DNA of 39,411 nt from a virus (lineage: Duplodnaviria; Caudoviricetes). The DNA is taken from positions 1 through 39,411 of the IMG/VR virus record IMGVR_UViG_3300031890_000028, one strand, 5' to 3'. The notes beneath the pieces were generated by a model that made no database searches, had not been told where the DNA came from, and was given only the letters and a program-made list of their open reading frames with translations. Positions 572 to 37,993 of the stretch are shown here, one piece after another. The stretch's first letter is position 1. Each line of letters begins with the position of its first letter. A program made the translations under genes and the position numbers.

Positions 572-778
572 ATGACAGGCCGAGTCATCTGCGAGAACTG
601 CAGGCACCCGCGTCCCTTGCACCGCAACGGCACGAGCGCGTGCGCTGCTCGCGGATGCCACGCCGGGCCGGACGGGGGACCGTGCGCCGGCTTCGTAGCC
701 GAGACCAAGACGGCGGTGCCGCTGGCCCGGTTCCAGGCTGCCGACCTGGATGGCCTTCCCGCCGCGTCCAACCAGTAG
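572..778 (+). CDS. Small Cys/His-rich (putative Zn-binding) protein
   Basis: GAGGAGG RBS before ATG 572; CENCRHPRPLH...CAARGC...GGPC. Confidence 0.7.
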   Translation: MTGRVICENCRHPRPLHRNGTSACAARGCHAGPDGGPCAGFVAETKTAVPLARFQAADLDGLPAASNQ

Positions 779-824
779 TACCCCTGGCGAAGCGCTCCAC
801 CCCGGAAGCCTTGAGGAGGTTGCC

Positions 825-3800
825 GTGGCCGACGTCCTGGAGCACTTCACCGCCGCCCGTCCCCCGCGCGGGCAGGAAACCTGCGCCTGCTGTGAGGGTG
901 ACGGCGTGCACGGGACGCGCGCCTGCGCCCGCTGCGACGGTACCGGCTTCGTCCGCAAGGGCTCGGACGACCCGTTCTGCCCCGGCCGCGAGGACGACCG
1001 TCCCGTCCCGGCGCGCCGCCACTGGCGCGAGGGCGCCCGGCGCGATCCCTGGCATGGCGAGGGCCCCTGGTACCACGGCACCCCTGAGGAGCTGGCCGAG
1101 GGCGACGTCATCCAGCCTGGCGATGTGGTGGGCAAGCAGCACATGGGCCGTGGCTCGGACTCGACCCGGGCCTGGGTCACCAACGACCCCTGGAAGGCCT
1201 CGTCCTACGGCACGAACATCTACGAGGTCGAGCCCAGCGTGCGCCCCAAGTCGATGTACGCCCGCCATCACGAGCACTACCTGCCCGAAGGCGGTACGGC
1301 CCGGGTGATCCGCCAGGTGCCCTACGCCGAGGCCACCGAGCTGAGCCCGGAGTACCAGCGCGGCAAGCGCGCCATGGAGAAGCAGATCCGCCAGCAGCGC
1401 AGGGGCGTGTTGGCCGGTCGCCCGCAGTACGGGCCCAGGCCCGAGTACCGGGGACCGCCCGAGGGCGCCGGCGAGGACGAGCAGATGGCGCACTTCGAGC
1501 GCGCCCGCGCCGAGCGCAACGCCTGGAGCGCGCACGTCAAGCGCGGCCTGTCCCTGGGTCACCTGTCAGCGGAACAGGCCAAGGGGCTGAACTACTACTT
1601 CGGCGGCCACGAGACCGATGCTCGCGGCGAGCCCGGCTGGCAGCCGCTGCCGCGCGAGATGTACCACGCCACCACCGACCTGCCCTCAGTGCGGGCACAC
1701 GGCCTGAAGACCCGCGACGAGCTGGGCCAGCTGTCCGGGCACGGCCTGGGCGGCGGCGAGTCCGACACCATCTCGGTCACCACCGACCATGAGCTGGGGC
1801 GCGGCATCCTGGCGTCCCTGCACGAGTTCCACGACGTGGTGAACGGCCGGTACACCCCGCAGCAGATGTGGGCGGACGCCAGGGCGGGCAGGGGCGCCTC
1901 GCGGCCGTTCCACGAGGACATGGCCAGCTACTGGCACCGGGAGGGCTGGCACGAGGGCGACGAGATGCCCATCGGCCTGCACAACGCCATCCACGGCATC
2001 GAGCGCAAGCACACCATGGGATCCACCCAGGAGCGGATGGACGCCGAGCACGGCCCGGGGTGGCGCCCGGCCCGCGATGACGAGGGCTGGATGAGCGGCC
2101 ACACCCCGCCGCAGCGCGTGCACCTGGACTGGGAGCGGCCGATGACCCCGGACGAGCACCGGGGCAACGCCGCCGACTTCTACAAGAAGTTCTCGGCCTT
2201 CCGCGAGCACGCCGGCGGGCGCGAGGACCCGAACTTCTTCATGACCGACGAGAAGGCCTTCGCCGCCAAGGACCCGCGCAATTTCGCGCTGCTGCACGTC
2301 CGGCCCGCCCCCGGCGGCCACGGCTACCCGATGGGCGGCATGCGCGAGTGGCGCACCGGCACCGGGGACGCCCTGCAGGTGCATCACTATGAGCAGCAGC
2401 ACGACCAGGGCCGGCTGCGCACTGCCGTCTTCCGGCATGAGGCCAGGGAGCAGGACTACGGCATAGGCCACGAGCCGGATACCGGCGGGCCGCCGCTGCA
2501 TGACCTGCTCGACTCCAGCGGGACCGACTGGGGGATGCCCCCGGACATCTACGACAACCTGCACCAGTACAACTACGGCGAGGGCAATACCGGCTGGGAT
2601 GCCATGGCCAAGATCCGTAAGTTCCGGGGCCAGCCGGACAAGCGGGTCCGTATCTGGCGGTCGGCCCCGGCGGTCAACCCCGAGTCCCGCAACAACAAGC
2701 GCGGCGAGATCAACCACGGTGACTGGATAGCGCTGAGCAAGGAGAAGGCGCTCCGTGAGTCCTATGAGGTCAACGACCCGCCGCGCGGCAGCCTGCCTGC
2801 TGACCACCCGAACCGCTACCACATCTGGTCGGCGCTGGTCCCGGCCAGGCACGTGCGCAACGCGGACGGCGACATCACCGAGTGGGGTTATTCCGGCCCG
2901 GACCTGAAGGACCTGCCGCACTCCTCCGAGCGGTGCAGCCACCGGGCCCGGGTGCTGCCGGAGGGCACCGAGCGCCCCGAGCGCGTTCCCAGGCGCCGCT
3001 CGTTCTGGGACACCGATTTCGCCGGCAAGGGTCACTTCGGTGCTTATGTCCCCCGGGCCGAGCGCACTGAGAACGTCGCGCACATGCTCGCGCACTACCA
3101 GCCGACCGACTTCGGCACCTGGGCCGAGGTCGACCACAACTTCAACTGGGATGTCCCGGAAAACCGCGAGTTCGTCGAGGACGTACGGCGCAATGGCGTG
3201 CGGCGGCCCATCCCGGTCGATTACGAGTCTGATCCGCCCCGCGTCATGAACGGTCACAGGCGGCTGCTGAGCGCGCACCGGGCAGGCGTCGGGACGGTGC
3301 CGACCCGCCAGCACGAGGGTTTCGCCGATCCGGACGACCCGGATCCGATGGGCTGCCACGGTGACTGGGGCGAGCACGAGCAGTCCTGGGGCCAGCATGA
3401 GGGGACCCGGCAGGTGACGGCGGTGAAGATCTACGACAAGCGGCCGTCCGAGGAGGAGGCCCGCGCCCTGGTCGGCCGCCGGATCGACAAGTCCGACCTG
3501 CGGTACAGCCGGGACCGCTACGGCATGGCCGAGGGCGAGAAGTTCGCCGACCACTTCGGCCTGGTGCCGATCGTCTCCATGACCAGCTCGATGGCCACCG
3601 ACCGCCCGTACGGCAACATGCACTGGGGCGTCACCGTCAAGGGCCAGCCCGCAGGCCGGATCTGGAGCAACTTCGAGGGCACCCGGCACCGCTTCACGCC
3701 CGGCTGGTGGGACCCGGAGAAGGAGGTCTACGACCCGGAGCGGCACGGCACCGACATCGAGACGGGCCACCAGCCGCGCCAGGCAGCACGCGAGCCCGGC

Positions 3801-5438
3801 ATGCGCAACCCGCATACCGGGGGCGACGAGTTCTACCACGGGACGAAGGCTTATCCCGAGGAGCTGGGCGGGCACGGCTTCGCCGACCCGATGGAGATGG
3901 ACTCCGGTGCCTATGAGATGCCGGAGTCCGAGACCGAGGGCACTCACTGGAACGCGCTGCTGGGCACGCACTTCACTGCCGACCACGACATCGCCAAGGG
4001 GTTCGCGGCCGGTGACTTCCAGTCCAGCGCCAACCAGCGCGGCGAGGGCGCCGGCGGGCGCGGTGAGGCCCGCAGCATCATCCATGCCCGCCTCGGCCTG
4101 CGTAACCCGAAGGTCTACCGCTCCGAGCACGACATGGACCACGAGGCCTACGAGCACGAGTGGAAGGCGGGCAACCATCCCTCGGCGCACATCCCGGTCG
4201 GCAGCAATGACGAGGACGAGCGGGCTGAGATGGAGGAGATGTGGAACACCGCCGACCGGCTGCACCGGCAGTACCGCAACCGGATGATCCCGGCCGGGCA
4301 TGACGAGGGCGGGCACCCGGCCCGGACGGCCTGGATCAACAGCCACCCGGACAAGTGGGGTATCGCGAACCGGTACCGGGAGCGGCTGAAGGCCCAGGGC
4401 CATGACGGCATCATCTACGGCAACGAATACGAGCGGAGCAAGCACGGCGGCCAGGCGGACAAGTCCGCGATCGTCTTCGACCCCGGCCGGATCCAGGTCA
4501 CCCAGCAGCATGGCGCCTACGAGGACTGCATGTCCGGCGAGGAGGGCGAGCACCAGCAGCGCCGGGTGCCCGGCCCCGGCCAGATGGAGCTGCGGTACGG
4601 CGCGTGGGTCCCGGGTGAGCGCATTTTCGGTCCCACCTACGGCCTGGACCACCGGCTGTTCGGCGCGGATGAGCAGCTGCGCCCGGCCGTCCGCGACGCG
4701 ATCATGTCCCGCCTGGGCGCCGTGCTGGGCAACGTCATCGGCCCGGACTGGCATGCGGTCGTCACCCCCTGGCTGGCCGGCTCGCAGGTCTCGAAGTGGA
4801 CCAGCCCGCAGCTGGAGGGCAACGGCGACCTGGACGTGCTGGTCGGCCTGTCGCACAGCCATGTCCGGCTGGTCGCGCCGGCCCTGGCGCAGCTGGCCGA
4901 CGAGGAGATCGAGCACCGGCTCAACACGGTGCTCCGCGAGCGGTTCAACATCGACGGCTGGCACCCGCCGTTCGACCCGGACGGCAGCTACGACCTGACC
5001 GGCTACGCCATCCACGCCGCCGACATCCGGCAGGTCAATCCGTACGCCGCCTACAACCTGTCGGACGACAAGTGGACGGTCAGGCCGCCGGACCTGCCGC
5101 AGTGGTCGGCGCAGGACTTCCCGCAGGGCCCGGCGCTGATGCAGCAGGCCCGCGCGCTGATCGCCGAGGTGCGCGCCATCCTGCGGCTGCCCGAGCCGTT
5201 CCGGCGGCAGGAGGCGGAGCGGATCTGGCGCTACATTCACGAGGGCCGGGCGCAGTCCTTCACCCCCGGCGGGCTGGGCTGGCAGGGCACCGGCAACGTC
5301 CTGGAGAAGGCCCTGGACCAGGCCAGCGGCGCCCTGGTCGGCAAGCTCAAGGCCGTCATCTACGGCCCGGACGACGGTCACCCGCACGCCCTGGCCCAGG
5401 GGTTGACCACCGCTGACGTGGAGCCCGCCCATGCCTGA
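825..5438 (+). CDS. Giant polyvalent protein: Zn finger, about 4 ADP-ribosyltransferase-like domains, ParB-like domain, C-terminal Pol-beta-type nucleotidyltransferase
   Basis: Start moved to GTG 825 behind GAGGAGG. Motifs: CxxCxGxG x2; Arr-like WYHGT..GDVIQPG..AWVT..IYEVEP; MYHATT..GLK; RIWRSAP..GDWIALS..EWGY; ParB NGVRRPI..NGHRRL; ART-PolyVal-like FYHGT..GTHFT..NP..GHDGIIY..IVFDP; NTase LAGS..GDLDVLV. Confidence 0.8.
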   Translation: MADVLEHFTAARPPRGQETCACCEGDGVHGTRACARCDGTGFVRKGSDDPFCPGREDDRPVPARRHWREGARRDPWHGEGPWYHGTPEELAEGDVIQPGDVVGKQHMGRGSDSTRAWVTNDPWKASSYGTNIYEVEPSVRPKSMYARHHEHYLPEGGTARVIRQVPYAEATELSPEYQRGKRAMEKQIRQQRRGVLAGRPQYGPRPEYRGPPEGAGEDEQMAHFERARAERNAWSAHVKRGLSLGHLSAEQAKGLNYYFGGHETDARGEPGWQPLPREMYHATTDLPSVRAHGLKTRDELGQLSGHGLGGGESDTISVTTDHELGRGILASLHEFHDVVNGRYTPQQMWADARAGRGASRPFHEDMASYWHREGWHEGDEMPIGLHNAIHGIERKHTMGSTQERMDAEHGPGWRPARDDEGWMSGHTPPQRVHLDWERPMTPDEHRGNAADFYKKFSAFREHAGGREDPNFFMTDEKAFAAKDPRNFALLHVRPAPGGHGYPMGGMREWRTGTGDALQVHHYEQQHDQGRLRTAVFRHEAREQDYGIGHEPDTGGPPLHDLLDSSGTDWGMPPDIYDNLHQYNYGEGNTGWDAMAKIRKFRGQPDKRVRIWRSAPAVNPESRNNKRGEINHGDWIALSKEKALRESYEVNDPPRGSLPADHPNRYHIWSALVPARHVRNADGDITEWGYSGPDLKDLPHSSERCSHRARVLPEGTERPERVPRRRSFWDTDFAGKGHFGAYVPRAERTENVAHMLAHYQPTDFGTWAEVDHNFNWDVPENREFVEDVRRNGVRRPIPVDYESDPPRVMNGHRRLLSAHRAGVGTVPTRQHEGFADPDDPDPMGCHGDWGEHEQSWGQHEGTRQVTAVKIYDKRPSEEEARALVGRRIDKSDLRYSRDRYGMAEGEKFADHFGLVPIVSMTSSMATDRPYGNMHWGVTVKGQPAGRIWSNFEGTRHRFTPGWWDPEKEVYDPERHGTDIETGHQPRQAAREPGMRNPHTGGDEFYHGTKAYPEELGGHGFADPMEMDSGAYEMPESETEGTHWNALLGTHFTADHDIAKGFAAGDFQSSANQRGEGAGGRGEARSIIHARLGLRNPKVYRSEHDMDHEAYEHEWKAGNHPSAHIPVGSNDEDERAEMEEMWNTADRLHRQYRNRMIPAGHDEGGHPARTAWINSHPDKWGIANRYRERLKAQGHDGIIYGNEYERSKHGGQADKSAIVFDPGRIQVTQQHGAYEDCMSGEEGEHQQRRVPGPGQMELRYGAWVPGERIFGPTYGLDHRLFGADEQLRPAVRDAIMSRLGAVLGNVIGPDWHAVVTPWLAGSQVSKWTSPQLEGNGDLDVLVGLSHSHVRLVAPALAQLADEEIEHRLNTVLRERFNIDGWHPPFDPDGSYDLTGYAIHAADIRQVNPYAAYNLSDDKWTVRPPDLPQWSAQDFPQGPALMQQARALIAEVRAILRLPEPFRRQEAERIWRYIHEGRAQSFTPGGLGWQGTGNVLEKALDQASGALVGKLKAVIYGPDDGHPHALAQGLTTADVEPAHA

Positions 5439-8400
5439 CCTGGTAGCGCACTTCACCCCCTCGCCGGACTGGACCTTCTACCACGGCACGCCGGACGAGC
5501 GGCACTGGCAGCACGGGGCGGTCAACGGCATCCACGTCGGCACCGAGGAGGCTGCGCACCAGGCGCTGAACGCCCGGATCGGCCGCCCGCTGGAGGGCCG
5601 GTGGGATGGCACCCGCGAGTACGGCAAGACGCTGCTGAGCCCGTACCAGCGCACTGGCACCGAGCGCGACCTGGAGAACGCCCGCTACCCGAGCGGCCGG
5701 GCCACCTACACGCCGGACGCCTCCGGCCACGCCCACCTGGTGCCGCTGGACGCCCGGCCGAACGTCTTCCCGGTGCGGATCACCGGGCCCATGATCAACC
5801 ACCCGGCAATCCCCGTTGAGGACGACTACGCGAACTCGCGGCTGCGCGGCCAGATCACCCGGGGCAACGCGAAGCGCGGCTACTTCTACCGCAATGTCGG
5901 CGAGGACGAGGGCTCGATCTCGGCGGCCGTCCCCTCGGCCGCGCACCTGGAGCGCCTGGACGCCCCGAAGACGGCCGGGCTGCTGGAGCACTTCGGCGCT
6001 TACGAGGGACCGCCGGGCGAGGGTTTCCCGAACGCCTACCACGGGTCGTCTCGGTTCGGCGGGCGGCCGGAGTGGCGTCACACATGGTTCCATGGCACCA
6101 GGGGTGTCCCGGAGTTCGGCGAGCGCCGCAGCCACGGCCAGGATGAGCTGGCCAAGCCGCCGGATGAGCGCAAGATGGCCGGCGGCTGGGCCCAGCCCAA
6201 TCAGCTGCTCGGCGTGCACTTCAGCCCGCTGCACGAGGTGGCGCACAAGTTCGCCGGATCGGTCAGCAGTACGCCGGGCGCCATCGTCCATGCCCGGCTG
6301 AACTTCAGCAATCCGGCGCACTTCGAGAGCGAGCACCATCTCAACATCGCCATGGCCGACTGGGGCTCCAGGCACTACCCGGCCTGGCACAACGACAAGC
6401 TGAACGCCAGCATGGCCTGGAACTACTCCGACAGCGAGGGCACGCGCCGGGACTTCTCCCGCGCCCCGGATGACCACCGCGAGCTGCGCCGCCTGGGCAA
6501 CCAGGCGCAGTCCCTGCTGCAATGGCACCCGCACATGCCCGAGATCCTGAAGGGCTTCACCGCTGACCTGCGCGGCCAGGGCCATCGCGGCATCACCTAC
6601 GGCAATGGCCTGGAGGGCCCGTACGAGACCGACGCCGGACGCGGCGGCGAGGCGGCCATGAAGTACATCACCAAGCGCGAGAACTGGCCGCACGGCAGCC
6701 CGTACAGCATCTCGGCGATCGCCCAGCCCGAGGACATCCAGACCACTCATGTCGAGCACATCTCCCCGTGGCGGGCCGAGCCCGAGCCGCACGAGCGCAC
6801 CTGGGAGGACGTCAGCGACGGCGACGAGGACGACGCGATGCGCGACCGGGTGCTGGCCTACCACCGTTTCCACGGCGGCGCCTACCCCCGCGACGAGCAC
6901 ACGGTGGCCCGCAGGACCGCCGCCCTGAGAGCCGAGGACTACAAGGGCACAACCGGCAACAATTTCCACATCACCCGCAACGAGTACGGGATGATCCCGA
7001 CGTCGGTGATCGCCCGGATGCCCGGCGTGCGGGGCGAGGTGCCGGGCGAGCACCGCAACATGGACGACGCGGACGAGTGGCCGGAGTTCAAGGAGGACAT
7101 CGCCCGTAACGGCATCCGGGAGCCCGTCTTCATCACCGTGAACCACGGCGAGGAGCCGAAGCTGTCTGAGGGCAACCACCGCCGGGACGCGGCCGTCGCG
7201 CTGGGCATCTCCCATGTCCCGGCGGAGATCCGCTATTTCGGCCACGCCGAGCACCAGGGCACCGTCCTGGAGCGGGCCGGGCACCATGAGGCTGCTGCCG
7301 GGTACCCGCGCCGGGCCTCATCGAGCGGCGACCGGTTCGTCACCTGCCAGCAGGGCCATGAGCACTGGGGCGCGTACGGCGCGGCCGGCCTGCTGATCCG
7401 GCACCGGGGCGAGGACGGCCGGCAGCGGTACCTGCTGCAGAAGCGGAGCCCGTACGTCAACGAGCCCGACACCTGGTCGGTCCCCGGCGGCGCGATCGGC
7501 CGGGACGAGAGTCCCGAGCAGGGTGCCTGGCGCGAGGCGCGCGAGGAGATGGGCTCGATCCCGAAGCACGTCAGGACCCATCATGTCGTCAAGTCGACCG
7601 ACTGCGGCGACTGGGCCTATCACACCGTGGTCGCCGACGCCGGGGAGCACTTCATGCCCGGCGGGCGCGGCGAGACCCAGCACGAGACGGCGGGTGTCGG
7701 CTGGCATACCGCCGATGAGATCGACGAGCTGCGCAAGAACGGCGACCTGCATCCCGGCTTCGCCCGGTCCTGGGATGCGGTGCGCCGGTCGCGCGGCCCG
7801 AGGACAGCGGCCGTCGACTTCCACAAGCCGATTCCGCCTGAGCAGAAGATCTGCGGCACGTGCGGATGGCCGAGGAACAGGCACCAGGAGTTCGACCGGC
7901 TCTATCACGCCACCAGCCCGAGTCACCGGCACAGCATCAGGGACACCGGGCTGCGCGTCGAGTTCGAGCAGGGCTATGGCGTCACCGAGCCCGGTGTCTA
8001 CATGAGCCCGCGTCCTGATGAGCACAACACGGATCAGGACATCTGGGAGGTCGACGCTAGGGGCATGCGCGTCCACCCGGACGATCCGGGCAACCAGTAC
8101 GAGTTCCGTGATGTCGGCGGCTCGCACTTCTCTGCGGAGGACATCCCGCCCGAGCGGCTGAAACTGCACTACAAGGGGCGGGGCAACAAGTGGACCGGCT
8201 ACCCGCCGAAGGAGGCCGTGATCACCCCCAGGACTGAGCACGAGGCCGCCGACATCAGGTACCGCCAGTACGTGCAGCGCATCCACCCGCGCGACCTGAT
8301 GCAGTATGCCCAGCGGGAGGCCTGGCGCATGCAGGACCCGGGCGGGCGCAGGCACATCAGCGAGCTGGCCGAGGGCATCCGCCAGCGCGGCTACCGGCCT

Positions 8401-8634
8401 TCCGAGCACGGCGGGATGAGCGGCGATACGCACAGCTACCCGCCCAGCTTCCCGATCACCTTGTGCCATGACGATGACCAGTCCTGGCTGTGGAACGGCC
8501 ATCACCGGGTCTTTGCGCTGAACGAGGCCGGGTACGACAAGCCGGTGCCGGTGCTGGTCAAGGACTTCCGCACCCAGGGCCGCACGGCTGCCTGGGACGC
8601 CAGCGGTTCGGACCAGGCTGCTAAGGTTTCTTGA
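5431..8634 (+). CDS. Polyvalent protein: 3 ART-like domains, 2 ParB-like domains, NUDIX hydrolase
   Basis: FYHGT..IHVGT; WFHGT..GVHFS..GHRGITYGN; ParB NGIREPV..EGNHRRDAA; NUDIX box GGAIGRDESPEQGAWREAREEMG; Tpt1/KptA-like LYHAT..SIRDTGL..GVYMS..DIPPERL; ParB WNGHHRVFAL. Overlaps the upstream stop. Confidence 0.8.
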   Translation: MPDLVAHFTPSPDWTFYHGTPDERHWQHGAVNGIHVGTEEAAHQALNARIGRPLEGRWDGTREYGKTLLSPYQRTGTERDLENARYPSGRATYTPDASGHAHLVPLDARPNVFPVRITGPMINHPAIPVEDDYANSRLRGQITRGNAKRGYFYRNVGEDEGSISAAVPSAAHLERLDAPKTAGLLEHFGAYEGPPGEGFPNAYHGSSRFGGRPEWRHTWFHGTRGVPEFGERRSHGQDELAKPPDERKMAGGWAQPNQLLGVHFSPLHEVAHKFAGSVSSTPGAIVHARLNFSNPAHFESEHHLNIAMADWGSRHYPAWHNDKLNASMAWNYSDSEGTRRDFSRAPDDHRELRRLGNQAQSLLQWHPHMPEILKGFTADLRGQGHRGITYGNGLEGPYETDAGRGGEAAMKYITKRENWPHGSPYSISAIAQPEDIQTTHVEHISPWRAEPEPHERTWEDVSDGDEDDAMRDRVLAYHRFHGGAYPRDEHTVARRTAALRAEDYKGTTGNNFHITRNEYGMIPTSVIARMPGVRGEVPGEHRNMDDADEWPEFKEDIARNGIREPVFITVNHGEEPKLSEGNHRRDAAVALGISHVPAEIRYFGHAEHQGTVLERAGHHEAAAGYPRRASSSGDRFVTCQQGHEHWGAYGAAGLLIRHRGEDGRQRYLLQKRSPYVNEPDTWSVPGGAIGRDESPEQGAWREAREEMGSIPKHVRTHHVVKSTDCGDWAYHTVVADAGEHFMPGGRGETQHETAGVGWHTADEIDELRKNGDLHPGFARSWDAVRRSRGPRTAAVDFHKPIPPEQKICGTCGWPRNRHQEFDRLYHATSPSHRHSIRDTGLRVEFEQGYGVTEPGVYMSPRPDEHNTDQDIWEVDARGMRVHPDDPGNQYEFRDVGGSHFSAEDIPPERLKLHYKGRGNKWTGYPPKEAVITPRTEHEAADIRYRQYVQRIHPRDLMQYAQREAWRMQDPGGRRHISELAEGIRQRGYRPSEHGGMSGDTHSYPPSFPITLCHDDDQSWLWNGHHRVFALNEAGYDKPVPVLVKDFRTQGRTAAWDASGSDQAAKVS

Positions 8635-17199: not shown

Positions 17200-17271
17200 T
17201 ATCAAGGTTTATTGATATTTCCGAACACCCGTATCAAGGTTTTTTGACAATGTGCGCGGTGCCAGTATAGT
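17200..17271 (+). promoter_or_regulatory. Two operator copies plus a near-consensus sigma70-type promoter for the RAMP operon
   Basis: TATCAAGGTTTATTGATA at 17200-17217; TATCAAGGTTTTTTGACA at 17232-17249; TTGACA(17244)-16 nt-TATAGT(17266). Confidence 0.8.
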
Positions 17272-17345: not shown

Positions 17346-18152
17346 ATGCCTGAAACTCAGGTTACGCCGGACACCGGGGACGGTGCCGGCATCGCAACCA
17401 AGGCTCCCGCTCGCGGTCGCCGCAGCGGCACGCCCACCACATCGGCAGCCTCTGCGACCGACGCGCCCCGGCTGGTCATCCAGCCGGTCAAGACCGAGAC
17501 GCTGATCATCCCGATCGTCGGCACCGCGCCGCTGATCGTCAGCCGGTTCAGCGAGAAGGCCAAGAAGCAGATGCTCGACGCCCAGCAGGGCGTCAAGAAC
17601 CCGCCGCAGAAGCGGGACCCGAACGCCGAGTTCGGCGCCTCCCTGTACCGGGCCGGCGTCATCGACCCGGACGGCCCGACCGAGACGCTGGTCGACGGGG
17701 TGCTCAACCCCAACCTGCGCTGGGGCCTGCCCGCCATGGCCTTCAAGATGGCGACCATCGGCGCCGGGCGCTTCTACGGCAAGCAGGTCAAGATGACCGA
17801 GCTGCGCCAGTTCATGTTCTTCGAGGGCATCCAGGTGGACGGCGAGTCCTCCAAGATGGTCGTCATCGACGGCGAGCCCGAGATGCGCGAGGACTATGTG
17901 CGGCTGGCCGGGGTCAACCACCCCGCCGACCTGCGCTACCGGGGCTGCTTCTACGAGTGGTCGGCCCTGCTGGAGGTCCGGTACACCGTCAACCTGCTCG
18001 ACCGCCAGTCCCTGGTCAGCCTGATCCAGGCCGGCGGCATGGGCGTGGGGGTCGGCGAGTGGCGGCCGGAGCGCAACGGCGAGTTCGGCACCTACGAGGT
18101 GCAGGACGGCGAGATCAAGGTGGTCAGGCCGGCGCTCGTGACGGCAGGCTGA
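17346..18152 (+). CDS. Stand-alone Cas7/RAMP-like RNA-binding protein (VIPR-like effector)
   Basis: RAMP-like layout: N-terminal strand IVGTAPLIV, GLPAMAFK helix, LRYR..F.EW strands, C-terminal Gly-rich loop GGMGVGVGEWRPERNGEFGTYEV. Strong RBS; no other cas genes in the window. Confidence 0.75.
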   Translation: MPETQVTPDTGDGAGIATKAPARGRRSGTPTTSAASATDAPRLVIQPVKTETLIIPIVGTAPLIVSRFSEKAKKQMLDAQQGVKNPPQKRDPNAEFGASLYRAGVIDPDGPTETLVDGVLNPNLRWGLPAMAFKMATIGAGRFYGKQVKMTELRQFMFFEGIQVDGESSKMVVIDGEPEMREDYVRLAGVNHPADLRYRGCFYEWSALLEVRYTVNLLDRQSLVSLIQAGGMGVGVGEWRPERNGEFGTYEVQDGEIKVVRPALVTAG

Positions 18153-18153
18153 G

Positions 18154-18612
18154 ATGCCCGCCCCGGGACCTGACATCCAGGCGCTGCTCCTGGAGATCCG
18201 GGAGGCCAACGACGGCGTACTCACCGCGCAGGCCGTCGTGGATGCCGCCCGGGACCCGCTGCACGCGCTGCACCAGCACTTCGAGTGGGATGACGAGAAG
18301 GGCGCCGAGAAGTACCGGGTCCAGCAGGCCCGGCAGCTCATCCGGATCGTGAAGCTCACCTACGTCGACAAGCGCGGCGAGGTGCGCAAGATGCGGGTGT
18401 TCCACTCGGTGCCGGACCCGGACTCGCTCTCGGGCCGGAGCTACGTGCCGCTGGGGGAGATCGAGCGCAGCGATGTCATGTCGGCGCAGCTGCTCCGGTC
18501 GATGGAGATCGACTGGCGCAACCTGCACCGCCGGTACAGGCAGTTCGCCGAGTTCCGGGCGATGGTCGCCCGGGACATGGACGAGGCCGGCGACGGCGCG
18601 ACCGGGACCTGA
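18154..18612 (+). CDS. Partner/accessory protein of the RAMP gene
   Basis: Starts 1 nt after the RAMP stop; LTAQAVVDAARDP..LHQHFEWDD..AEKYR..QARQLIR motif, which I recognise from memory as a recurrent phage neighbour of this RAMP family. Confidence 0.75.
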   Translation: MPAPGPDIQALLLEIREANDGVLTAQAVVDAARDPLHALHQHFEWDDEKGAEKYRVQQARQLIRIVKLTYVDKRGEVRKMRVFHSVPDPDSLSGRSYVPLGEIERSDVMSAQLLRSMEIDWRNLHRRYRQFAEFRAMVARDMDEAGDGATGT

Positions 18613-18695: not shown

Positions 18696-19445
18696 ATGCG
18701 CAAACTGACCAGGATCAGCGCCATCGCGGCGCCGCTCTCCGCCGTCGCGATCGCCCTCTCGGCGGGCGCGGCCTCCGCCGCCCCGGCGCCCGCCTACAGC
18801 GGTACCCAGGCCGGCATTACCACGGGCTGCGGCCCGGCCGGCTGCGGCTCGGTCCAGTCCGAGGTCCTGACCCTGCCCTCGTCCCCGGGCCCGAACGGGC
18901 AGACCTCCTACGCGGTACAGCTGACCGGCTCGCAGGGATCGGTCGTGCTGTCGCTGGGCCCGCTGTCCGGCGGCGCCTACCAGGCCCAAGTCGTCAACGA
19001 GATCAACGACTACCCGCTGCTGACGGTCGGCTTCGACGACGCCAGCAACCCGGCTGTCACCACGTTCCGCGCGGGCGACAACGTGCTGCTGGAGCTGAGC
19101 TACGACTCCTCGGGCAACGTGGTCTGGTCGGCCGTCAACCTGACCGATGACACCCAGGCGCCGTTCACCGGGACGTTCCTGGACGCCGGCCAGGTGTTCA
19201 CCAGCGCCTCGGCGGGGGCCATCTTCGCCCAGGATGTCTACGGCATCGTGCCCTCGTTCACCCAGCCGCCGGCCAGCACCGTGCTGGCGAGCTTCAGGCA
19301 CACCGTGATCACCGACGCCGGCGGCGCCGTGATCCCGGCGCCGTACACCAGGGTGCAGCTGCGCGCGGGCGGGGTGAAGCTCGGCAAGCTGCTGGCCACC
19401 TCCGGCGACGGCAGGGCCTTCACTATCACTCTCGAAAAGAGCTGA
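18696..19445 (+). CDS. Secreted beta-rich protein with signal peptide
   Basis: AAGGGAG RBS; MRKLTRISAIAAPLSAVAIALSAGAASA signal (AxA site); function unknown. Confidence 0.8.
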   Translation: MRKLTRISAIAAPLSAVAIALSAGAASAAPAPAYSGTQAGITTGCGPAGCGSVQSEVLTLPSSPGPNGQTSYAVQLTGSQGSVVLSLGPLSGGAYQAQVVNEINDYPLLTVGFDDASNPAVTTFRAGDNVLLELSYDSSGNVVWSAVNLTDDTQAPFTGTFLDAGQVFTSASAGAIFAQDVYGIVPSFTQPPASTVLASFRHTVITDAGGAVIPAPYTRVQLRAGGVKLGKLLATSGDGRAFTITLEKS

Positions 19446-19467: not shown

Positions 19468-19507
19468 CCGGGACCAGGGCAGAGCACCGGCTCAGCCCTG
19501 GTCCCGG
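19468..19507 (+). other. Hairpin at the 5' border of array 1a
   Basis: CCGGGACCAGGGC/GCCCTGGTCCCGG 13-bp stem overlapping the first pentamers. Confidence 0.6.
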
Positions 19508-19913
19508 CTTGCAATGGCACAGCTTGGCTCCGGAGGCCCGGCTGGGCTGGGCGGCGCGCGGCAGCGCAGGGCTGCCGTGGCTTGGCCCGTCGTTGCCCGG
19601 AGTCGCGCCGCATGGCTCGGCATTACAGCGCATGGCCGGAGCGGCTTGGCCCGGCATGACCCGGCCCGGCATGGCCCGGTCGCGCAGGGCACGGCACCGC
19701 CTGGCGGTTTTGGCAAGGCTCGGCGCCGATCGCTCGGCACGGGCGGCAAGGCCGTCCCGGCTCGTCCTGTCGTGGCGGCGCGCGGACTGTCATGGCATCG
19801 CAAGGCAGCCGGGGCTAGGCGCGGCGGGCCCTGGGAAGGCGTGGTTAGGCAGCCTGGGCCAGGCTTGTCCTGGCGTCGCTGCGAGGGCATCGCTTGGCAT
19901 CGCGCTCACGGCC
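19501..19913 (+). ncRNA. (GGC)NN pentamer guide array 1a, 7 units
   Basis: 5-nt periodic GGC/cGC/GTC scaffold with a variable dinucleotide; units end in a GGCN tetramer. Confidence 0.85.
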
Positions 19914-19932
19914 GCGCAGGACCGGTGCCGCG

Positions 19933-20070
19933 ATGAGCGGCAACGGGCAGCGCAAGCCCTGCGCGCACCCGGACAAGCAGTATTTCCGTGACGAGGAACG
20001 GCCGGACGGGACGGTGCTGCGGCACTGGATTTGCCCTGACTGCCTGCAGCTGGGAGCTGACCCGCAATGA
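19933..20070 (+). CDS. 45-aa CxH..CxxC micro-protein interrupting the array
   Basis: MSGNGQRKPCAHPDKQYFRDEERPDGTVLRHWICPDCLQLGADPQ*; lies in the non-periodic gap between arrays 1a and 1b. Confidence 0.55.
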   Translation: MSGNGQRKPCAHPDKQYFRDEERPDGTVLRHWICPDCLQLGADPQ

Positions 20071-20101
20071 GCATCCGGGGCACGATCATCTTCGCCGTGG
20101 C

Positions 20102-21233
20102 GGCATAGCGGGGCCGGTGCCGCGTGGCTTGGAAGGACCGGCAAGGCGTCGCTGGGCGGGGCACAGCCGGAGGGGTGTCGCATGGCAGCCTTGGCCTGGC
20201 CGGGCCAGTCGAGGCATGGACAGTGCGGCAAGGCATGGTGCGGCTGGCAGGATGCGCATGGCCAGCCAGGGCTTGGCGCCGATGGCTAGGCAGTCATGGC
20301 GCAGCGCTACGCGGAGTGTCATGGCTCGGCTCGGCAGTCATGGCCGGGCTTTCCCCGGCGTGGCCAGCGCGGCGAGGCTTGGGCGGCAGTCGCGGCAGGG
20401 AGGGGCTCTTCCTGGCTAGGCCCGGCACGTTATGGCGCGGGCGGCTTGGCAGTCCTGGCGAGCACGACGGGGCTGTTAGGGCATGGCGTGGTTCGGCCGT
20501 CTAGGCTCTGTGCTGCAGGGCCACGCGCGGGATCGCCCGGTTCGGCTGTCCGGGCTAGGCACGGGCAGCGCGGCCAGGAGAGGCATGCGGGGCCAAGCCA
20601 GGCTGTCAAGGCTAGGCGCGGGCAGTGCGTGGCACGGATCGGCCAGGCGTGACGGGGCCAGGCTGTCAGGGCGAGGCCGTGCGCGGCACGGATCGGCCAG
20701 GCGCGGCGGGGCCAGGCTGTCAAGGCGGGGCTCGTCATGGCTGGGCCCGGGGCGCTCGTCCCGGTACGGCAAGGCAGCGCAGTCATGGCGAGGCACGGCA
20801 GGTCAAGGCCCGGCGTGGCCGGGCAGGATCGTGAGGCAAGGCATCGCCGGTCAAGGACCGGCATGGCCAGGCGAGGCACGGGCGGCCGGCACTGGCAGAA
20901 TACGCATGGCGAGGCGGGGCCTGGGCGGCAGGCGAGGCGGTGATGGGCCTGGCCTGGCGTGGCTTGGTGAGGCAAGGCGCGGCCCGGCAGTCCGGGTATG
21001 GCCTGGACTGGCATGGTGATGCGGGGCGCAGCGAGACGCGGCGTGGCCGTCGTGGCAACGCCGGGCGGCTAGTCATGGCTGGGCACCGCGTCGCGCGGCG
21101 GGGCATTGCCTGGCAGGAGATGCGTCGCGTGGCCCGGCGTTGCTTGGCTAGGCGAGGCGGGGCGAGGCTGCCGGCGCTGGGCAGGGCTGGGCATTTCTCG
21201 GCGGGGCTCGGCTCGGCATCTCGCGGCAAGGCA
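20102..21233 (+). ncRNA. (GGC)NN pentamer guide array 1b, about 20 units
   Basis: Same periodicity and unit delimiters as 1a. Confidence 0.85.
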
Positions 21234-21272
21234 GGACTCACCCCCCGGAAGAAGTAGGCCGAGGAGGTAGCC

Positions 21273-32675: not shown

Positions 32676-33703
32676 CAGTCCTCCTCCCCGGGGTCCTCGC
32701 CCCAGCTGACGCCGAGGATGTGGTCGACGGCGCGCTGCGCCTGGGCGGCGGCCTGGATGACCCACTTCGGCTCGGACTCCAGCTTGGCCAGCCAGTTGGC
32801 GAGGTAGGCGGCCGAATTGGCGAACGTGGCCGGGGTTTCGATGCCCGCCGTGGCCATCAGCATCGCCGCGCCCATCTCGGCGGCCAGCTCCTCCTTGGAG
32901 TACCGCTCGGACCCGAAGTGGTCGAAGTGCTCGATGCCGGGCCGGTTCAGCCGGGACGGGTGGCCGGTGGAGTGGGTGTCCTCGTGGAAGACCGTGCTCC
33001 AGTACTCGGCCTCGGCCTCGGTCTCGCTCTCGGCCGCGTAGGCGGCCAGCGGCGGCACGTGGATGCCGTTGTGCAGGTCGTAGTAGGCCCGGTCGCCGTG
33101 CTCGGTGAAGTTCAGCCCGGCCCGCTCGATGTAGGCCTTGTGGATCTCCAGCGCCCGCAGCATCTGCTGGACGCGGGTGGGGGCCCCGGGGGCCTCGGTC
33201 GGCGCGAACCGCCCGGGGGCGCCGGTCACCTGCTCGTAGTTGAAGACCACGTAGGAGTTCAGCATCGGGATGCGCTTCTTGATCGGCCGGCCCGTCCTGG
33301 GGCTGATCTCGTCGGTGTCGACGTAGATCTGCTTCCAGAAGATGATGGCCGTGCCATGCTGGCCGGCCAGCCCGGCCCACCGGGTGCCGTCCGGGTTCGC
33401 CCAGTACCAGCCCCGGCGGCTGTCGTCAGCGGTCTTCACCGCGCCGCAGGCTTCGGCCCACTGGTTGTAGCTGCCCCACCACGGGCTCGTGAAGGGCTCG
33501 GTGGCCAGCACGATCGGGTTGACGCCCCGGTAGGGCTTCTTGCTCTTGATGTTCACCGGCCATGCCACGGCTCCGCCGGCCGCGCTCCACTTCTTGCGCC
33601 ACGGGACGGTGCCTTCCCGGAGCTGGGCGATCATGCGGTTGGTGATCGTGTTGTAGATCGCGTCCTGGCGGGTGCTCTGGCTGCGGGTTTTGGTGCCTGG
33701 CAT
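32675..33703 (-). CDS. ardC: ArdC-family antirestriction protein (ssDNA-binding plus zincin-like domain)
   Basis: IT..IAQL..G.VPWRK.W, Y.GVN, VFNYEQ, HE.THSTGH..RL.R, Y..EEL.AE.GA; true start ATG 33703 behind GAGGGAG. Confidence 0.9.
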   Translation of the reverse strand: MPGTKTRSQSTRQDAIYNTITNRMIAQLREGTVPWRKKWSAAGGAVAWPVNIKSKKPYRGVNPIVLATEPFTSPWWGSYNQWAEACGAVKTADDSRRGWYWANPDGTRWAGLAGQHGTAIIFWKQIYVDTDEISPRTGRPIKKRIPMLNSYVVFNYEQVTGAPGRFAPTEAPGAPTRVQQMLRALEIHKAYIERAGLNFTEHGDRAYYDLHNGIHVPPLAAYAAESETEAEAEYWSTVFHEDTHSTGHPSRLNRPGIEHFDHFGSERYSKEELAAEMGAAMLMATAGIETPATFANSAAYLANWLAKLESEPKWVIQAAAQAQRAVDHILGVSWGEDPGEED

Positions 33704-34082: not shown

Positions 34083-35009
34083 ATGCAGCTGGACGAAAGG
34101 TTCGTAAGTATCGCGAACCTGGTCAAACTAGGACACGACCCGGGGGATCCGATTCTTTGTTCGCATTGCCCGTTCTGCGGCAGCGGGCAGATCACCGGGC
34201 GGTCAGACGGCGGCATCGACTGCGCCTTCTGCGGCCAGTCCTTCATCGTCCGCGTGCAGCCAGCATTTCCAGGAATGCCCCAGGCCCCGGGGATGGGCGC
34301 CCCGACCGACGCCGGCCCCGACATGGGCGCGATGCCTCCGCCCGGAATGGGGGAAGGCGGGATGCCGCCTGGCGCCGGGGGCCCGCCCGGCGCTGAGGGC
34401 GAGGAGGGCCCGCCGTTCGGCGAAGAGGGTGCGGAAGGCGAGGAGGGCGGCCCCCCTGGCGAAGCGGCGGAAGAAGAGGGCGACCAGGAGGACGAGGAGA
34501 AAGGCGCACCCCCGTTCCCCCCGAAGAAGAAGGCCGCCCGCGCCGCCGCCCCCGCCGCCCGAGCCGCCTACCGGACCCTAGCCGGCGACCTGCTGGACGA
34601 GGACCGCTACGTCCGGCACCTGGCCATCCTGCACTCCGGCTTCTCCCCGGCCGTCATCCGGCTGGTCCGCCAGGGATACCTGACGACCGGCGACACCCCG
34701 CACCACCGCGCCAAGTACGACGAGGGCTACTCCGCCTCGGAGAACGCCTACGAGCACGAGATCGCCGGGCGGTCCCCGCTGGAGGAAGCGGACCTGCGCG
34801 GCGAGCCCGACTCCTGGTACCAGGGCTACATGGACCACGCCACCGACCGGCCCTACGGCCACGCGATCGAGTGCCCGGCCCATGACCACGACGTGCCCGG
34901 CTGCACGCTGGTCGACTACCCCGAGAAGTTCGATCCCGCCTACACCCGCCAGCACGACACGGCCTGGCTGGGCGAGCACCGCATCAAGGGCTCCCGGGCG
35001 GCCTCGTGA
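34083..35009 (+). CDS. Zn-ribbon protein preceding the portal (probable morphogenesis protein)
   Basis: GAGGAGG RBS; HCPFCGSGQ..SDG..CAFC; acidic/Pro-rich linker; GTGA-coupled to the portal. Confidence 0.7.
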   Translation: MQLDERFVSIANLVKLGHDPGDPILCSHCPFCGSGQITGRSDGGIDCAFCGQSFIVRVQPAFPGMPQAPGMGAPTDAGPDMGAMPPPGMGEGGMPPGAGGPPGAEGEEGPPFGEEGAEGEEGGPPGEAAEEEGDQEDEEKGAPPFPPKKKAARAAAPAARAAYRTLAGDLLDEDRYVRHLAILHSGFSPAVIRLVRQGYLTTGDTPHHRAKYDEGYSASENAYEHEIAGRSPLEEADLRGEPDSWYQGYMDHATDRPYGHAIECPAHDHDVPGCTLVDYPEKFDPAYTRQHDTAWLGEHRIKGSRAAS

Positions 35010-37993
35010 AGTTCCAGTTCTCCGCCCAGGCCGCCCTGGACCGTGACCGCCGGGTCAGCGAGGGCATGAGCCGGATGCTGGCGCTCGGCGCCAGCCGGGC
35101 CGGGACGATGACCCCCGAGGTAGCCGAGGCCCGCAAGAACCGCTCGGTGATGCGCCGCACGGGCGCCTACGGGGCCGGCGGCGCCGGGGGAGCTTCCGGA
35201 GGTTTCGGCGACATCCAGTTCGCCACCGGCCGCCCGCGCGATCCTTTGTTCTACTGGCGCCAGAATAACCTGCCCTACGACTTCAGCCAGAACGAGGAGC
35301 TGGCCAAGGTCCGGGCCTTCTGCCGGCTGCTGTACCAGACCGACCCGATCATCGGCAGCTGCGTCGACATCTTCTCCAAGTTCCCCACCATGGGCGACCA
35401 CCTGGAGTGCAAGGACCCCCGGCTGGAGGACTTCTACGGCGACCTGTTCTTCACCGAGGAGCACCTGGACTACGAGGAGTTCACCGTCGACATCGGCCGG
35501 GAGTACTGGACCTCCGGCGAGGCCTGGCCGTTCGCCACCTTCAACGAGGACCTGGGCATCTGGGACGACGAGGAGCTGCTCAACCCCGATGACGTCAAGG
35601 TCGAGCGCAGCCCGTTCCTGAAGGAGCCCCGGTACTTCATCCGGCTGCCCTGGACCATCCGGCAGATCCTGCAGACCCGCCAGCCCGCCTGGGAGTACAA
35701 CCGGCTGGTCGCCGAGTACCCCGAGCTGACCGCCTACACCGCCGAGAACACCTTCATGCCGGTCAGCAACATCCTGCTGAAGCAGCTGAAGTTCCGGGGC
35801 GACACGTTCAACGTGCGCGGCGTGCCGCTGCTGACCCGGGCGATGCGCTCGATGCTGCAGAAGGAGATGCTCAACACCGCACTGGACTCGATCGCCGACC
35901 GGCTGTACACCCCGCTGATCCTGTGCAAGCTCGGCGCCAGCGCCACCGACCTGGGCACCTCCCAGCCGTGGATCCCCACCGACGACGACCTGGAGAACTT
36001 CGAGCTGGCCCTGGACGCCGCCCTGGCCGGCGACTTCCGCGCGCTGATCTACAACTTCGCCGTCGAGATGCTGCCGGTGCTCGGCCGCGAGAACATGCCC
36101 GACCTGACCCCGGACTTCGAGCGGATCGAGGACTCCATCCTGCAGGTGTTCGGCCTGAGCAGAACGTTCCTGATGGGAGCGCAGTGCTTGACTGGTGATG
36201 TGATGATCCACGTCAGCCGGGCCGGCAAGGGCTTCCAGATGAAGATCAAGGACCTGGTGGCCCGGTTCAACGGGGAGGATGACTATCTCCCCGGCAGGCG
36301 GTGGGATCCCGAGATCCCGACGCTCGTGGCACGTGCCGATGGCGGCGTGGTCCGGCTGGGCCGCCTGGACGCTGCCTGGTGCTCGGGCGTCAAGGATGTC
36401 TTCGAGGTCAGGACCGAGGGCGGGCGCAGCATCAGGGCCTCGGCCGAGCACCCGTTCCAGGTCGCCGGCGGCCGGTGGGTGAAGCTGCGGGACCTGAAGC
36501 CCGGCGACGAACTCCGGGTGAATACCGGGCACAGCGCCCGGGGCCGGGAATGGAACAAGAGCTATCGTGTCGTGCACACGCTGTATCACCCGCATCAGAG
36601 CAACGACGGGCTGCACCGGGGCAAGCGGCGGTTTAAGGTCTACCAGCACCGGCTGGTCATGGAGGCGGCGCTCAACGAGCTGCCGTACGAGGAGTTCGTG
36701 GAGATCCTGCGCACTGACCCGGTGCGCAGCAAGGAGCTGGTCTTCCTGCCCTCATCGCTGCACGTCCACCACGATAACGAGGACACGCAAAACAACGACC
36801 CGGGCAACCTGGTGATCAGCACGCACGCCGAGCACCACGGCGGTTATCACGACCACACCGGGAACGTGCTCTGGCAGGTCGGCATTGACAAGGTGTCCTC
36901 GATCACGCCCTGCGGCCAGGAATCTACTTACGACCTGCGGATGGATGGCGAGCCGCACAACTTCCTGGCCGATGACTTCGTGGTGCACAACAGCGGCCAG
37001 ACTTACGCAGCCGACGCGCTGAACAAGGAACTGGTCACCATGCTGATGGCCAAGTACCAGCGGTTCCAGGCGCGGCACTTCCGGCAGCGGGCCATGGTGG
37101 TGGCCGAGGCGCAGGAGCATTACGACTACAACGAGCACGGCGGCAAGCGCTACGTGATCATGGAGGAGGTGCTGGAGACCGACGAGGAGACCGGCGAGAA
37201 GCGCCTCGTCGAGCAGCCCCGGCTGCTGGTCCCCGACCGCCGGTTCAAGGTGCTCAACCTGAAGGACGAGGACGCGACCCGCCAGTTCGTCGAGGCGCTG
37301 CGCGCCAGCGGCATCCCGATCTCCCAGCGGACCCGGACCCGCAACCTGGACCTGGACCTGGACGAGGAGGTCAACCGGTCCCAGGACGAGGCCGTCGCCC
37401 AGGCCGTGGCCGAGCAGGACACCCGCAAGCAGACCTACATCGCGCTGCGCGACCAGGGCCTGCCGGTGCCGCAGGACCTGGCCGCCGACTTCGCGCCCGT
37501 CGCCCAGGTCGAGGGCATCCCGCCGGGCATCTCCATGGGCGGCATGCCGCTGCCCCGGCTCGGCACTGAGCCCCCGCCGGGAGGGCCCCTGCTGGCCCTG
37601 GCGCCCGGCCCGGAGGACATGGAGGAGGAAGAGCAGGCCGAGGGCGAGCCGCCCGCTGCCCCGCCCGAGGGCGAGGAGGACGAGGGCCCCGGCGACCAGT
37701 CCCAGCGCCCCGAGGAGTCCGATGAGGAACGCAAGGGCATGCCGAGCGAGGCCGCCCTGTTCCGGCGCACCGCCCGGACCCGGGACCTGGCCCGCGCCCG
37801 CGAGCGCAGGCCGCTGGAGGGGGAGGAGCACCAGACCCCGGTGATGAGGCCCAACGGCGAGGTCCAGGAGGTCCGCGAGTGGACCACGGCCGACGCCCCG
37901 GCCGGCTACAAGGATCCCCGCGTGGTCGGCGTCCGCCGCCAGGCCGGGTTGCAGAATGGCGATGAGCTGCCGGCTGACGCTGATTCGCTATAA
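35006..37993 (+). CDS. Portal protein with intein
   Basis: Portal-like segments (LLYQTDPIIGSCVDIFSKFP, GREYWTSGEAW, LLNPDDV, RGVPLL, PLILCKLG, ILQVFGL) and an acidic tail; recalled as similar to portals of large actinobacterial myoviruses. Confidence 0.8.
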   Translation: MKFQFSAQAALDRDRRVSEGMSRMLALGASRAGTMTPEVAEARKNRSVMRRTGAYGAGGAGGASGGFGDIQFATGRPRDPLFYWRQNNLPYDFSQNEELAKVRAFCRLLYQTDPIIGSCVDIFSKFPTMGDHLECKDPRLEDFYGDLFFTEEHLDYEEFTVDIGREYWTSGEAWPFATFNEDLGIWDDEELLNPDDVKVERSPFLKEPRYFIRLPWTIRQILQTRQPAWEYNRLVAEYPELTAYTAENTFMPVSNILLKQLKFRGDTFNVRGVPLLTRAMRSMLQKEMLNTALDSIADRLYTPLILCKLGASATDLGTSQPWIPTDDDLENFELALDAALAGDFRALIYNFAVEMLPVLGRENMPDLTPDFERIEDSILQVFGLSRTFLMGAQCLTGDVMIHVSRAGKGFQMKIKDLVARFNGEDDYLPGRRWDPEIPTLVARADGGVVRLGRLDAAWCSGVKDVFEVRTEGGRSIRASAEHPFQVAGGRWVKLRDLKPGDELRVNTGHSARGREWNKSYRVVHTLYHPHQSNDGLHRGKRRFKVYQHRLVMEAALNELPYEEFVEILRTDPVRSKELVFLPSSLHVHHDNEDTQNNDPGNLVISTHAEHHGGYHDHTGNVLWQVGIDKVSSITPCGQESTYDLRMDGEPHNFLADDFVVHNSGQTYAADALNKELVTMLMAKYQRFQARHFRQRAMVVAEAQEHYDYNEHGGKRYVIMEEVLETDEETGEKRLVEQPRLLVPDRRFKVLNLKDEDATRQFVEALRASGIPISQRTRTRNLDLDLDEEVNRSQDEAVAQAVAEQDTRKQTYIALRDQGLPVPQDLAADFAPVAQVEGIPPGISMGGMPLPRLGTEPPPGGPLLALAPGPEDMEEEEQAEGEPPAAPPEGEEDEGPGDQSQRPEESDEERKGMPSEAALFRRTARTRDLARARERRPLEGEEHQTPVMRPNGEVQEVREWTTADAPAGYKDPRVVGVRRQAGLQNGDELPADADSL
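36185..36991 (+). mobile_element. Intein (269 aa) with HNH homing endonuclease
   Basis: N-terminal Q|CLTGD, block B ASAEHPF, C-terminal HNFLADDFVVHN|S; internal HRLVM..VHHDNEDTQNNDPGNL..H. Confidence 0.92.

Follow-up and report, generated by a model that had tools for sequence, protein, structure and literature searches.

In class 1 CRISPR systems, crRNA arrays are processed by Cas6 and the filament is built by Cas7/Csm3. The closest described systems to the locus considered here are the VIPR systems, for which the text of 10.64898/2026.04.26.720920 gives sRNA-seq confirmation of the ribozyme and single-guide types only, not of the staggered type. Staggered arrays, whose guides overlap by 1 nt, appear there in the legend of Fig. 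S18. In the VIPR system of SUSP1, His17 of the Vipr protein is described as reading G1 (text of 10.64898/2026.04.26.720927).

The window (the whole stretch of DNA that was analysed, 39,411 bases) is spanned in full by a virus record and holds a portal gene (portal phrog_2833), which places the locus in a phage or provirus. Its main features are:

17,244 to 17,271, plus strand: sigma-70-type promoter-like site upstream of vipr (11/12 match to consensus only)
17,346 to 18,152, plus strand: vipr gene, encoding a 268-aa RAMP protein with Ser66 where most relatives have His (PDB match, predicted fold)
18,154 to 18,612, plus strand: likely accessory (vap) gene, 152 aa, directly 3' of vipr (phrog_15946; viral clusters, without Pfam match)
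19,506 to 19,924, plus strand: array A1, about 7 guides (pentamer period, segmentation)
20,102 to 21,239, plus strand: array A2, about 23 segments, 18 of them within 20,330 to 21,233 (period, segmentation)
38,010 to 39,411, plus strand: array A3, behind the portal gene and running off the end of the window (period, segmentation)

Our reading, at a probability of roughly 0.68, is of a staggered array of VIPR guides, set off from one another by junctions, whose internal four-letter units retain the letters that match targets; Vipr likely silences matching genes of a probable actinobacterial host.

With its adjoining RAMP gene and GGY/NN arrays, the system is a VIPR system. The sole PDB sequence match of the vipr product is SUSP1 Vipr (36PP_D, E 8e-7 with a profile), and it extends across the thumb and G-loop; the predicted model (pLDDT 86.7) matches Csm3/Cas7 RAMP structures at E about 1e-5, so that a RAMP fold with thumb and G-loop is present. 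The locus is minimal, comprising vipr and one accessory gene, the latter likely being vap on the basis of its position. Tandem GGY/NN pentamers lie near vipr, and matching to targets proceeds with a 1-nt skip in which the skipped base falls at the wobble position (a 1-nt skip being the only one searched). Among the 15 proteins scanned in Pfam, no cas genes were found, nor was there a CRISPR array, and the repeat-spacer array and cas operon of class 1 CRISPR-Cas are both missing from the window, itself a partial genome. A Vipr relative is carried by 33 phage records. The host is probably an actinobacterium, because the named Vipr relatives (~50-57% identity) are actinobacterial; the protein clusters gave no host name.

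Several neighbouring genes were also noted. A 249-aa ORF with an N-terminal signal-like stretch lies between the accessory gene and A1 (18,696-19,445), is without a family match, and is missing at the corresponding place in the sister phage L072. Between A1 and A2 (19,933-20,108), two tiny overlapping ORFs of 45 aa (with Cys/His pairs) and 13 aa, read by eye, interrupt the array. The portal protein (35,006-37,993) carries an intein and an HNH domain, with A3 directly behind it. Two very large multi-domain ORFs with NUDIX and ParB-like pieces, and an ArdC-N/MPTase gene, occupy 750-8,634 and 32,678-33,700, which suggests more anti-host functions.

The 5-nt period of the arrays is found on the plus strand only. 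Segmentation of the three arrays gave 512 five-nt, 97 four-nt and 1 six-nt units, the slips being almost all of -1, and divided them into about 50 guides. Between 20,330 and 21,233 there were 29 four-nt units and 1 six-nt unit, counts that were reproduced under symmetric priors, while simulated pure pentamer arrays gave 0 slips. VIPR guides are described as having 9-16 repeats; here segments of 9-16 units made up 37/54 of the total, and those of 8-16 units 46/54, with segment ends inferred. Because the array stretch is identical in three other assemblies and one run contig, the slips are not assembly errors; the other holders of the stretch are soil metagenomes, and no RNA dataset is among the listed holders. 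The 5-nt phase with slips and the degenerate scaffold position, both proposed in the sequence-only reading, were thus borne out, GGY occupying only 313/509 pentamers and GGA, with a purine at position 3, 30/512. Scaffold class was mildly dependent on its neighbours (p=0.0005). Recent guide duplications with diverged NN letters were seen at 20,605-20,714, 38,206-38,383 and 38,797-38,889 (periods 54, 90 and 48), a possible route to new guides.

Targets could be assigned to about 9 of 67 guides. The guides and the two junctions that matter most to what follows are:

20,548 to 20,600, plus strand: guide, sense, for the HExGH motif of ImmA/IrrE (RmrA-like) proteins; four-nt units at 20,563-20,566 and 20,587-20,590
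20,715 to 20,718, plus strand: junction GGCT followed by first unit GTC, where the target match stops (0% match beyond)
20,719 to 20,777, plus strand: guide, antisense, for GDPGQ of an actinobacterial SF1 helicase-like gene; gggg unit at 20,749-20,752
20,778 to 20,781, plus strand: degenerate junction CGCA followed by GTC, where the target match ends
20,931 to 20,985, plus strand: guide, sense, for the Walker B region of STAND/NB-ARC-TPR proteins (21/22 and 20/22, pattern-found)
21,116 to 21,165, plus strand: guide, sense, for a possible RNA ligase motif (weak; 2/7 distinct matches are RNA ligases, 9/10 units)
21,170 to 21,239, plus strand: guide, antisense, for the EEPExHLHP motif of OLD/GajA-type ATPases (22/26 in locus L262; GajA E 2e-164)
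19,574 to 19,633, plus strand: guide, antisense, for Walker A of a ResIII/HsdR-like helicase (21/24 in locus L474)
19,638 to 19,702, plus strand: guide, antisense, for the NB-ARC P-loop (top of 67 guides, 18.0 bits)
39,287 to 39,339, plus strand: guide, sense, for the start of a TIR domain; the gata unit at 39,307-39,310 gives Tyr

The genes matched are homologues from a stand-in order rather than the host's own. The best characterised is that of guide 20719, whose pattern, with the four-nt codon left open and two further codons opened after a known motif, gave 55 matches in 50/61 genomes of one order as compared to 3 control matches. In 29/30 loci, 23/24 letters matched, although all 29, as orthologues of a single SF1 helicase-like gene, count as one independent case. 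Guide 20548 matched an HTH-ImmA gene (L200) at 20/22, and L072 guide 7818-7871 matched type I methyltransferase (HsdM) genes at 21/22, in both cases through the four-nt units. When 63 guides were compared to 232 loci, retrieved by family and not by pattern, with the families chosen beforehand by their known motifs, the four top excesses were the predicted pairs (HsdM, ResIII, HTH-ImmA and GajA-like). The predicted guide also ranked top of 67 in 6/7 profile families; guide 20931 was outside the top four of its NB-ARC profile, and the TIR loci were weak in a direct DNA scan (16/22), being separated by the profile test alone. Exact targets were found in 0/301 and 0/101 genomes, and three further scans also gave 0; another scan had 13 matches, about chance level, with 5 HExxH peptidases, none exact, and one more had 8 matches, none of them TIR. 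Other readings were rejected: PadR for guide 20389 (1 match versus 1 control, outside genes, and no fit in 29 PadR loci), HHGS for guide 19506 (matches not above control), and those for guides 20337 and 38705 (1 likely chance match each).

What these genes are for bears on the purpose of the arrays. The best-fitting genes match the PADLOC models for GajA, type I MTase and RmrA, and others encode TIR and STAND-TPR proteins. The arrays may therefore be aimed at host defence genes, a hypothesis given that ~9/67 guides are assigned, the families were chosen by known motifs and the scans gave no exact target. Guides aimed at competing prophages, integrative elements and plasmids could give the same picture, since defence genes travel on mobile elements; the published role and targets of VIPR are mobile elements, ImmA-like and RNA ligase motifs do occur in viral contigs, and the helicase-like target matches no recognised defence family above weak matches. 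However, 63 guides showed no excess of matches to the window itself or to 121 viral and metagenome loci, including related phages, and the helicase-like target is present in 50/61 cellular genomes and 0 viral contigs; together with the PADLOC matches, this leaves mobile targets a real contender, if a doubtful one. A broader form of the defence reading, in which VIPR serves a clade of large soil phages as a programmable means of silencing host defence broadly, seems to us conceivable at somewhat less than even odds. Dozens of guides would then face codons that do not vary in the host's immune genes (Gabija/OLD ATPases, type I restriction-modification, RmrA/ImmA, TIR and STAND), with a relaxed Vipr reading through four-nt units and cutting or ending guides at a clade-specific junction. 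A literature search found no VIPR aimed at host defence in the texts available, and target tables and data S3-S4 may hold such cases.

The best-matched target, the helicase-like gene in locus L226 (2-2,349), is a 446-aa SF1 gene with weak likeness to PLuB and GajB models, and it lies behind a gene without a PADLOC or NCBIfam family match. The two are a candidate for an unknown defence pair.

If the arrays hold separate guides, target matches should stop at defined places. The sequence-only reading had placed these at GGCN tetramers followed by GTC, GCC or GGA. Between 20,330 and 21,233, 17 four-nt units are GGCN (fourth base A in 8, T in 6, C in 2 and G in 1), and 13/17 are followed by GTC/GCC/GGA, as compared to 10/155 pentamers (p=2e-10). 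Over all arrays the figures are 39/51 for GGCN, 47/509 for pentamers and 7/46 for other four-nt units. Random 1-nt deletions produced 5.3 GGCN-type junctions (maximum 11 in 30 runs) versus 39 observed, a simulation that was run because the segmenter itself chooses cut placement and some cuts are ambiguous. In the unit-shuffle test, GGCNGTC was seen 11 times versus 1.9 in A2 and 9 times versus 1.6 in A3, and was not significant in A1 (1 versus 0.5). The spacing of 40-80 nt that had been claimed for the slips holds for most junction intervals (10/15 in 20,330-21,233 and 36/43 overall), whereas all slips taken together recur about every 30 nt. Three short segments of 3-4 units suggest that some GGCN are internal GG+CN units. 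The description was right for the range 20,330-21,233, except that one boundary is CGCA and that some of its examples (ggcc|ggaga, ggat, gata and SYVRED) come from A3 (38,010-39,411).

Target matches do end at these junctions, as had been claimed for the decoded motifs. For example, the units adjoining guide 20719-20777 match 0% on both sides, whether the junction is counted as a step or not, and in the profile tests of seven families, the flanks of the seven focal guides gave a negative sum in 26/28 cases. One exact boundary (20,778) is CGCA and not GGCN. The junctions are outer bounds only, because end units within guides 19638 and 21170 do not always fit.

The same boundary recurs across the family. 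Of 120 loci that were fetched and screened, 61 other non-redundant ones had arrays of at least 15 matches; in these, GGCA made up 572/615 GGCN units and GGY came next in 581/615; the median guide was 8-12 units in most of them. In the window, GGCA accounts for 18/51 and GTY/GCY/GGA come next in 45/51. The Vipr of L072 is 72% identical to that of the window and the array variant is common to both, so that on sequence the two phages form a clade variant in which the junction is degenerate and the first unit is marked. Cultured phages carry the common form: Gordonia phages Pipp and ODay and Mycobacterium phage Saal have vipr with GGCA-staggered arrays, the Pipp array being annotated as a hypothetical protein (gene 43). 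The arrays are:

Pipp: GGCA-staggered array, locus L494, 2,611 to 2,835
ODay: GGCA-staggered array, locus L495, 2,623 to 2,790
Saal: GGCA-staggered array, locus L496, 1,598 to 1,845

Target-match ends and family-wide conservation together support GGCN-type junctions as the bounds of individual guides. The idea of a boundary is already published in kind: the -1 shifts seen here at guide boundaries would fit the published overlap, as judged from the Fig. S18 legend alone. What is new, relative to the published text, is the clade's degenerate junction and marked first unit; GGCA is absent from the supplement text of 10.64898/2026.04.26.720920 (PMC13142463), whose figure may show it. These results leave very little room for a low-complexity GC repeat or a segmentation artefact with chance peptide look-alikes. 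High G+C and the ambiguous placing of some cuts would favour this, but the nulls (shuffle, deletion simulation, target controls, profiles and the 63-guide scan), the adjoining RAMP gene and the relatives that follow the same grammar speak against it, and the target controls and the deletion simulation have already refuted it.

Whether the junctions are cut is a separate matter. A long uncut transcript could be loaded as separate filaments, each junction merely resetting the register or stopping filament growth. This would suit an array with no conserved structured 3' tail per repeat tract, in which repeats continue gap-free between guides, no hammerhead ribozyme matched Rfam at gathering score and there is no inter-guide room for one; nor did vipr or the gene after it match a nuclease family, and the staggered type stands outside those confirmed by sRNA-seq. 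However, the near-invariant GGCA of the 61 loci suggests a recognised site, and the Fig. S18 legend presents staggered guides as processed RNAs. We consider uncut junctions rather unlikely, and continue with junctions as the likely RNA ends.

Besides the junctions, 26/45 guides hold an internal four-nt unit, and 23/45 such units are GG+NN. These internal tetramers had been predicted to contribute their last two nt. RYTAAHEIGH and GDPGQ decode as claimed, and the rule was supported at the level of sequence for gggg, gcgg, gata and gggc but not for gggt: in a tally that covers few of the 45 internal units, six fit (two being one site in two phages), one was neutral and gggt misfitted. Under this rule, the TIR, ImmA, AAA_15, NB-ARC, HsdM and helicase profiles each ranked the predicted guide first of 67, the helicase result being circular; in the kinase profile, the counter-case, it came 3rd of 67, with gggt scoring -1.3 bits. 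Skipping the four-nt unit lowered profile scores from 24.5 to 4.6 bits for ImmA, from 25.5 to 3.3 for HsdM and from 12.5 to 4.0 for TIR. For guide 20719, the predicted CC was present in 51/51 exact rows. In guide 20548, the second four-nt unit fits 9/14 distinct viral matches, and the first (gggc) fits 0/14 viral and 0/5 genome HExxH matches. Thus the available matches support the last two nt of internal units staying in register.

It could be argued that these units are decay, such that deletions in G-run scaffolds weaken or kill guides and the NN match is a relic of the intact guide. The excess of GG+NN is as expected from G-run slippage, and silencing is reportedly lost when GGY is substituted in SUSP1 (10.64898/2026.04.26.720920, main text and Fig. 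S12 legend). At one site, cgga in the window corresponds to a full pentamer in the orthologous L072 guide, whose NN and 3' junction are unchanged. The NN register would survive a scaffold deletion even in a dead guide. On the other hand, decay would damage 26/45 guides, and internal four-nt units occur at 9.0 per 100 in the window and 9.2 in L072 versus 2.5 in the 61 other loci. In a second pair of guides, with shifted ends, the position of the four-nt unit is shared by the two phages, and 14/14 NN letters are kept while 4 scaffold letters differ; this pair was found by NN score and is biased accordingly. The orthologous pairs score 21 and 14, as compared to a shuffled maximum of 11. The four-nt units were not enriched near guide ends (p=0.25). 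We regard decay as unlikely, and infer from the frequency of the units (26/45 guides) and their conservation in L072 that they are functional; the Vipr protein would then read through them. In the VIPR literature, the four-nt rule was not found in the text searched (10.64898/2026.04.26.720920, 10.64898/2026.04.26.720927, 10.64898/2026.10.15.759431 and 10.64898/2026.10.21.760802), the first of these mentioning just "internal degeneracy" in its text, and figures and data tables may hold it; as far as these texts go, a read-through rule for four-nt units is new for VIPR.

Scaffold degeneracy had been suggested to limit folding and recombination. The effect exists, in that folding is weaker than with an all-GGC scaffold in 36/45 guides and repeated 12-mers number 262 rather than 1115, but the purpose is not supported: the placing of the variants was no better than random (20/45, p=0.73). 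The protein may offer another lead. SUSP1 His17 aligns weakly (the aligned segment is not significant) to Ser66 of the window's Vipr, a position that is His in 42/45 Vipr relatives. G1 is least conserved in the window (0.83) and L072 (0.77), and reaches 0.91 with a third Ser protein. A His-to-Ser change at the G1-reading position may thus go with relaxed scaffold reading, as a lead that counts for about one evolutionary event.

A mechanism can be proposed on this basis. Transcription of the array would start at the vipr promoter. Each junction would leave the pairing slot one letter short (3+1+3), so that the filament breaks and an RNA end is likely set, the GTY/GCY/GGA first unit belonging to the junction mark. 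At an internal four-nt unit, it would instead be the flipped-out scaffold that lacks one letter (2+2), a shortening that the filament likely tolerates; such relaxed reading may follow from the His-to-Ser change. The phage Vipr likely binds the guides and silences matching genes of its probably actinobacterial host, and repression would act through binding to DNA, as has been demonstrated for SUSP1 VIPR.

With the boundary rule, long VIPR arrays can be split into guides, and the four-nt rule matters for decoding them, as a strict 5-nt decoder loses the targets of 26/45 guides. By the latter rule, a shortened scaffold is also predicted to be tolerated in the Vipr filament, which would be useful when guides are designed. 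Should host defence genes prove to be the targets, VIPR would be a counter-defence guided by RNA, and conserved motifs in undescribed defence genes could be read from its guides. Since cultured Gordonia and Mycobacterium smegmatis phages have staggered arrays, the question of processing is testable now.

Compared with known systems, the locus shares with class 1 CRISPR crRNA arrays the RAMP fold and a multi-guide precursor with a repeated boundary signal, but the window is without a repeat-spacer array or cas operon, and pairing is gapped, not contiguous. It resembles type II VIPR (SUSP1 and P. fulva; 10.64898/2026.04.26.720927) in the Vipr sequence match over the thumb and G-loop, and differs, so far as the text describes that type, in that its guides are without a 3' pseudoknot tail, Ser66 stands at about the place of His17, and position-3 purines occur. 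The nearest likeness is to the staggered vrRNA arrays as described in the Fig. S18 legend of 10.64898/2026.04.26.720920: a Vipr RAMP with one accessory gene, GGY/NN repeats, the 1-nt wobble skip, and guides that probably abut with a one-letter register shift. Unlike these, the window has a degenerate junction with a GTY/GCY/GGA first unit, 9 internal four-nt units per 100, and about 50 guides in three arrays, of which those assigned are directed to cellular defence-type motifs.
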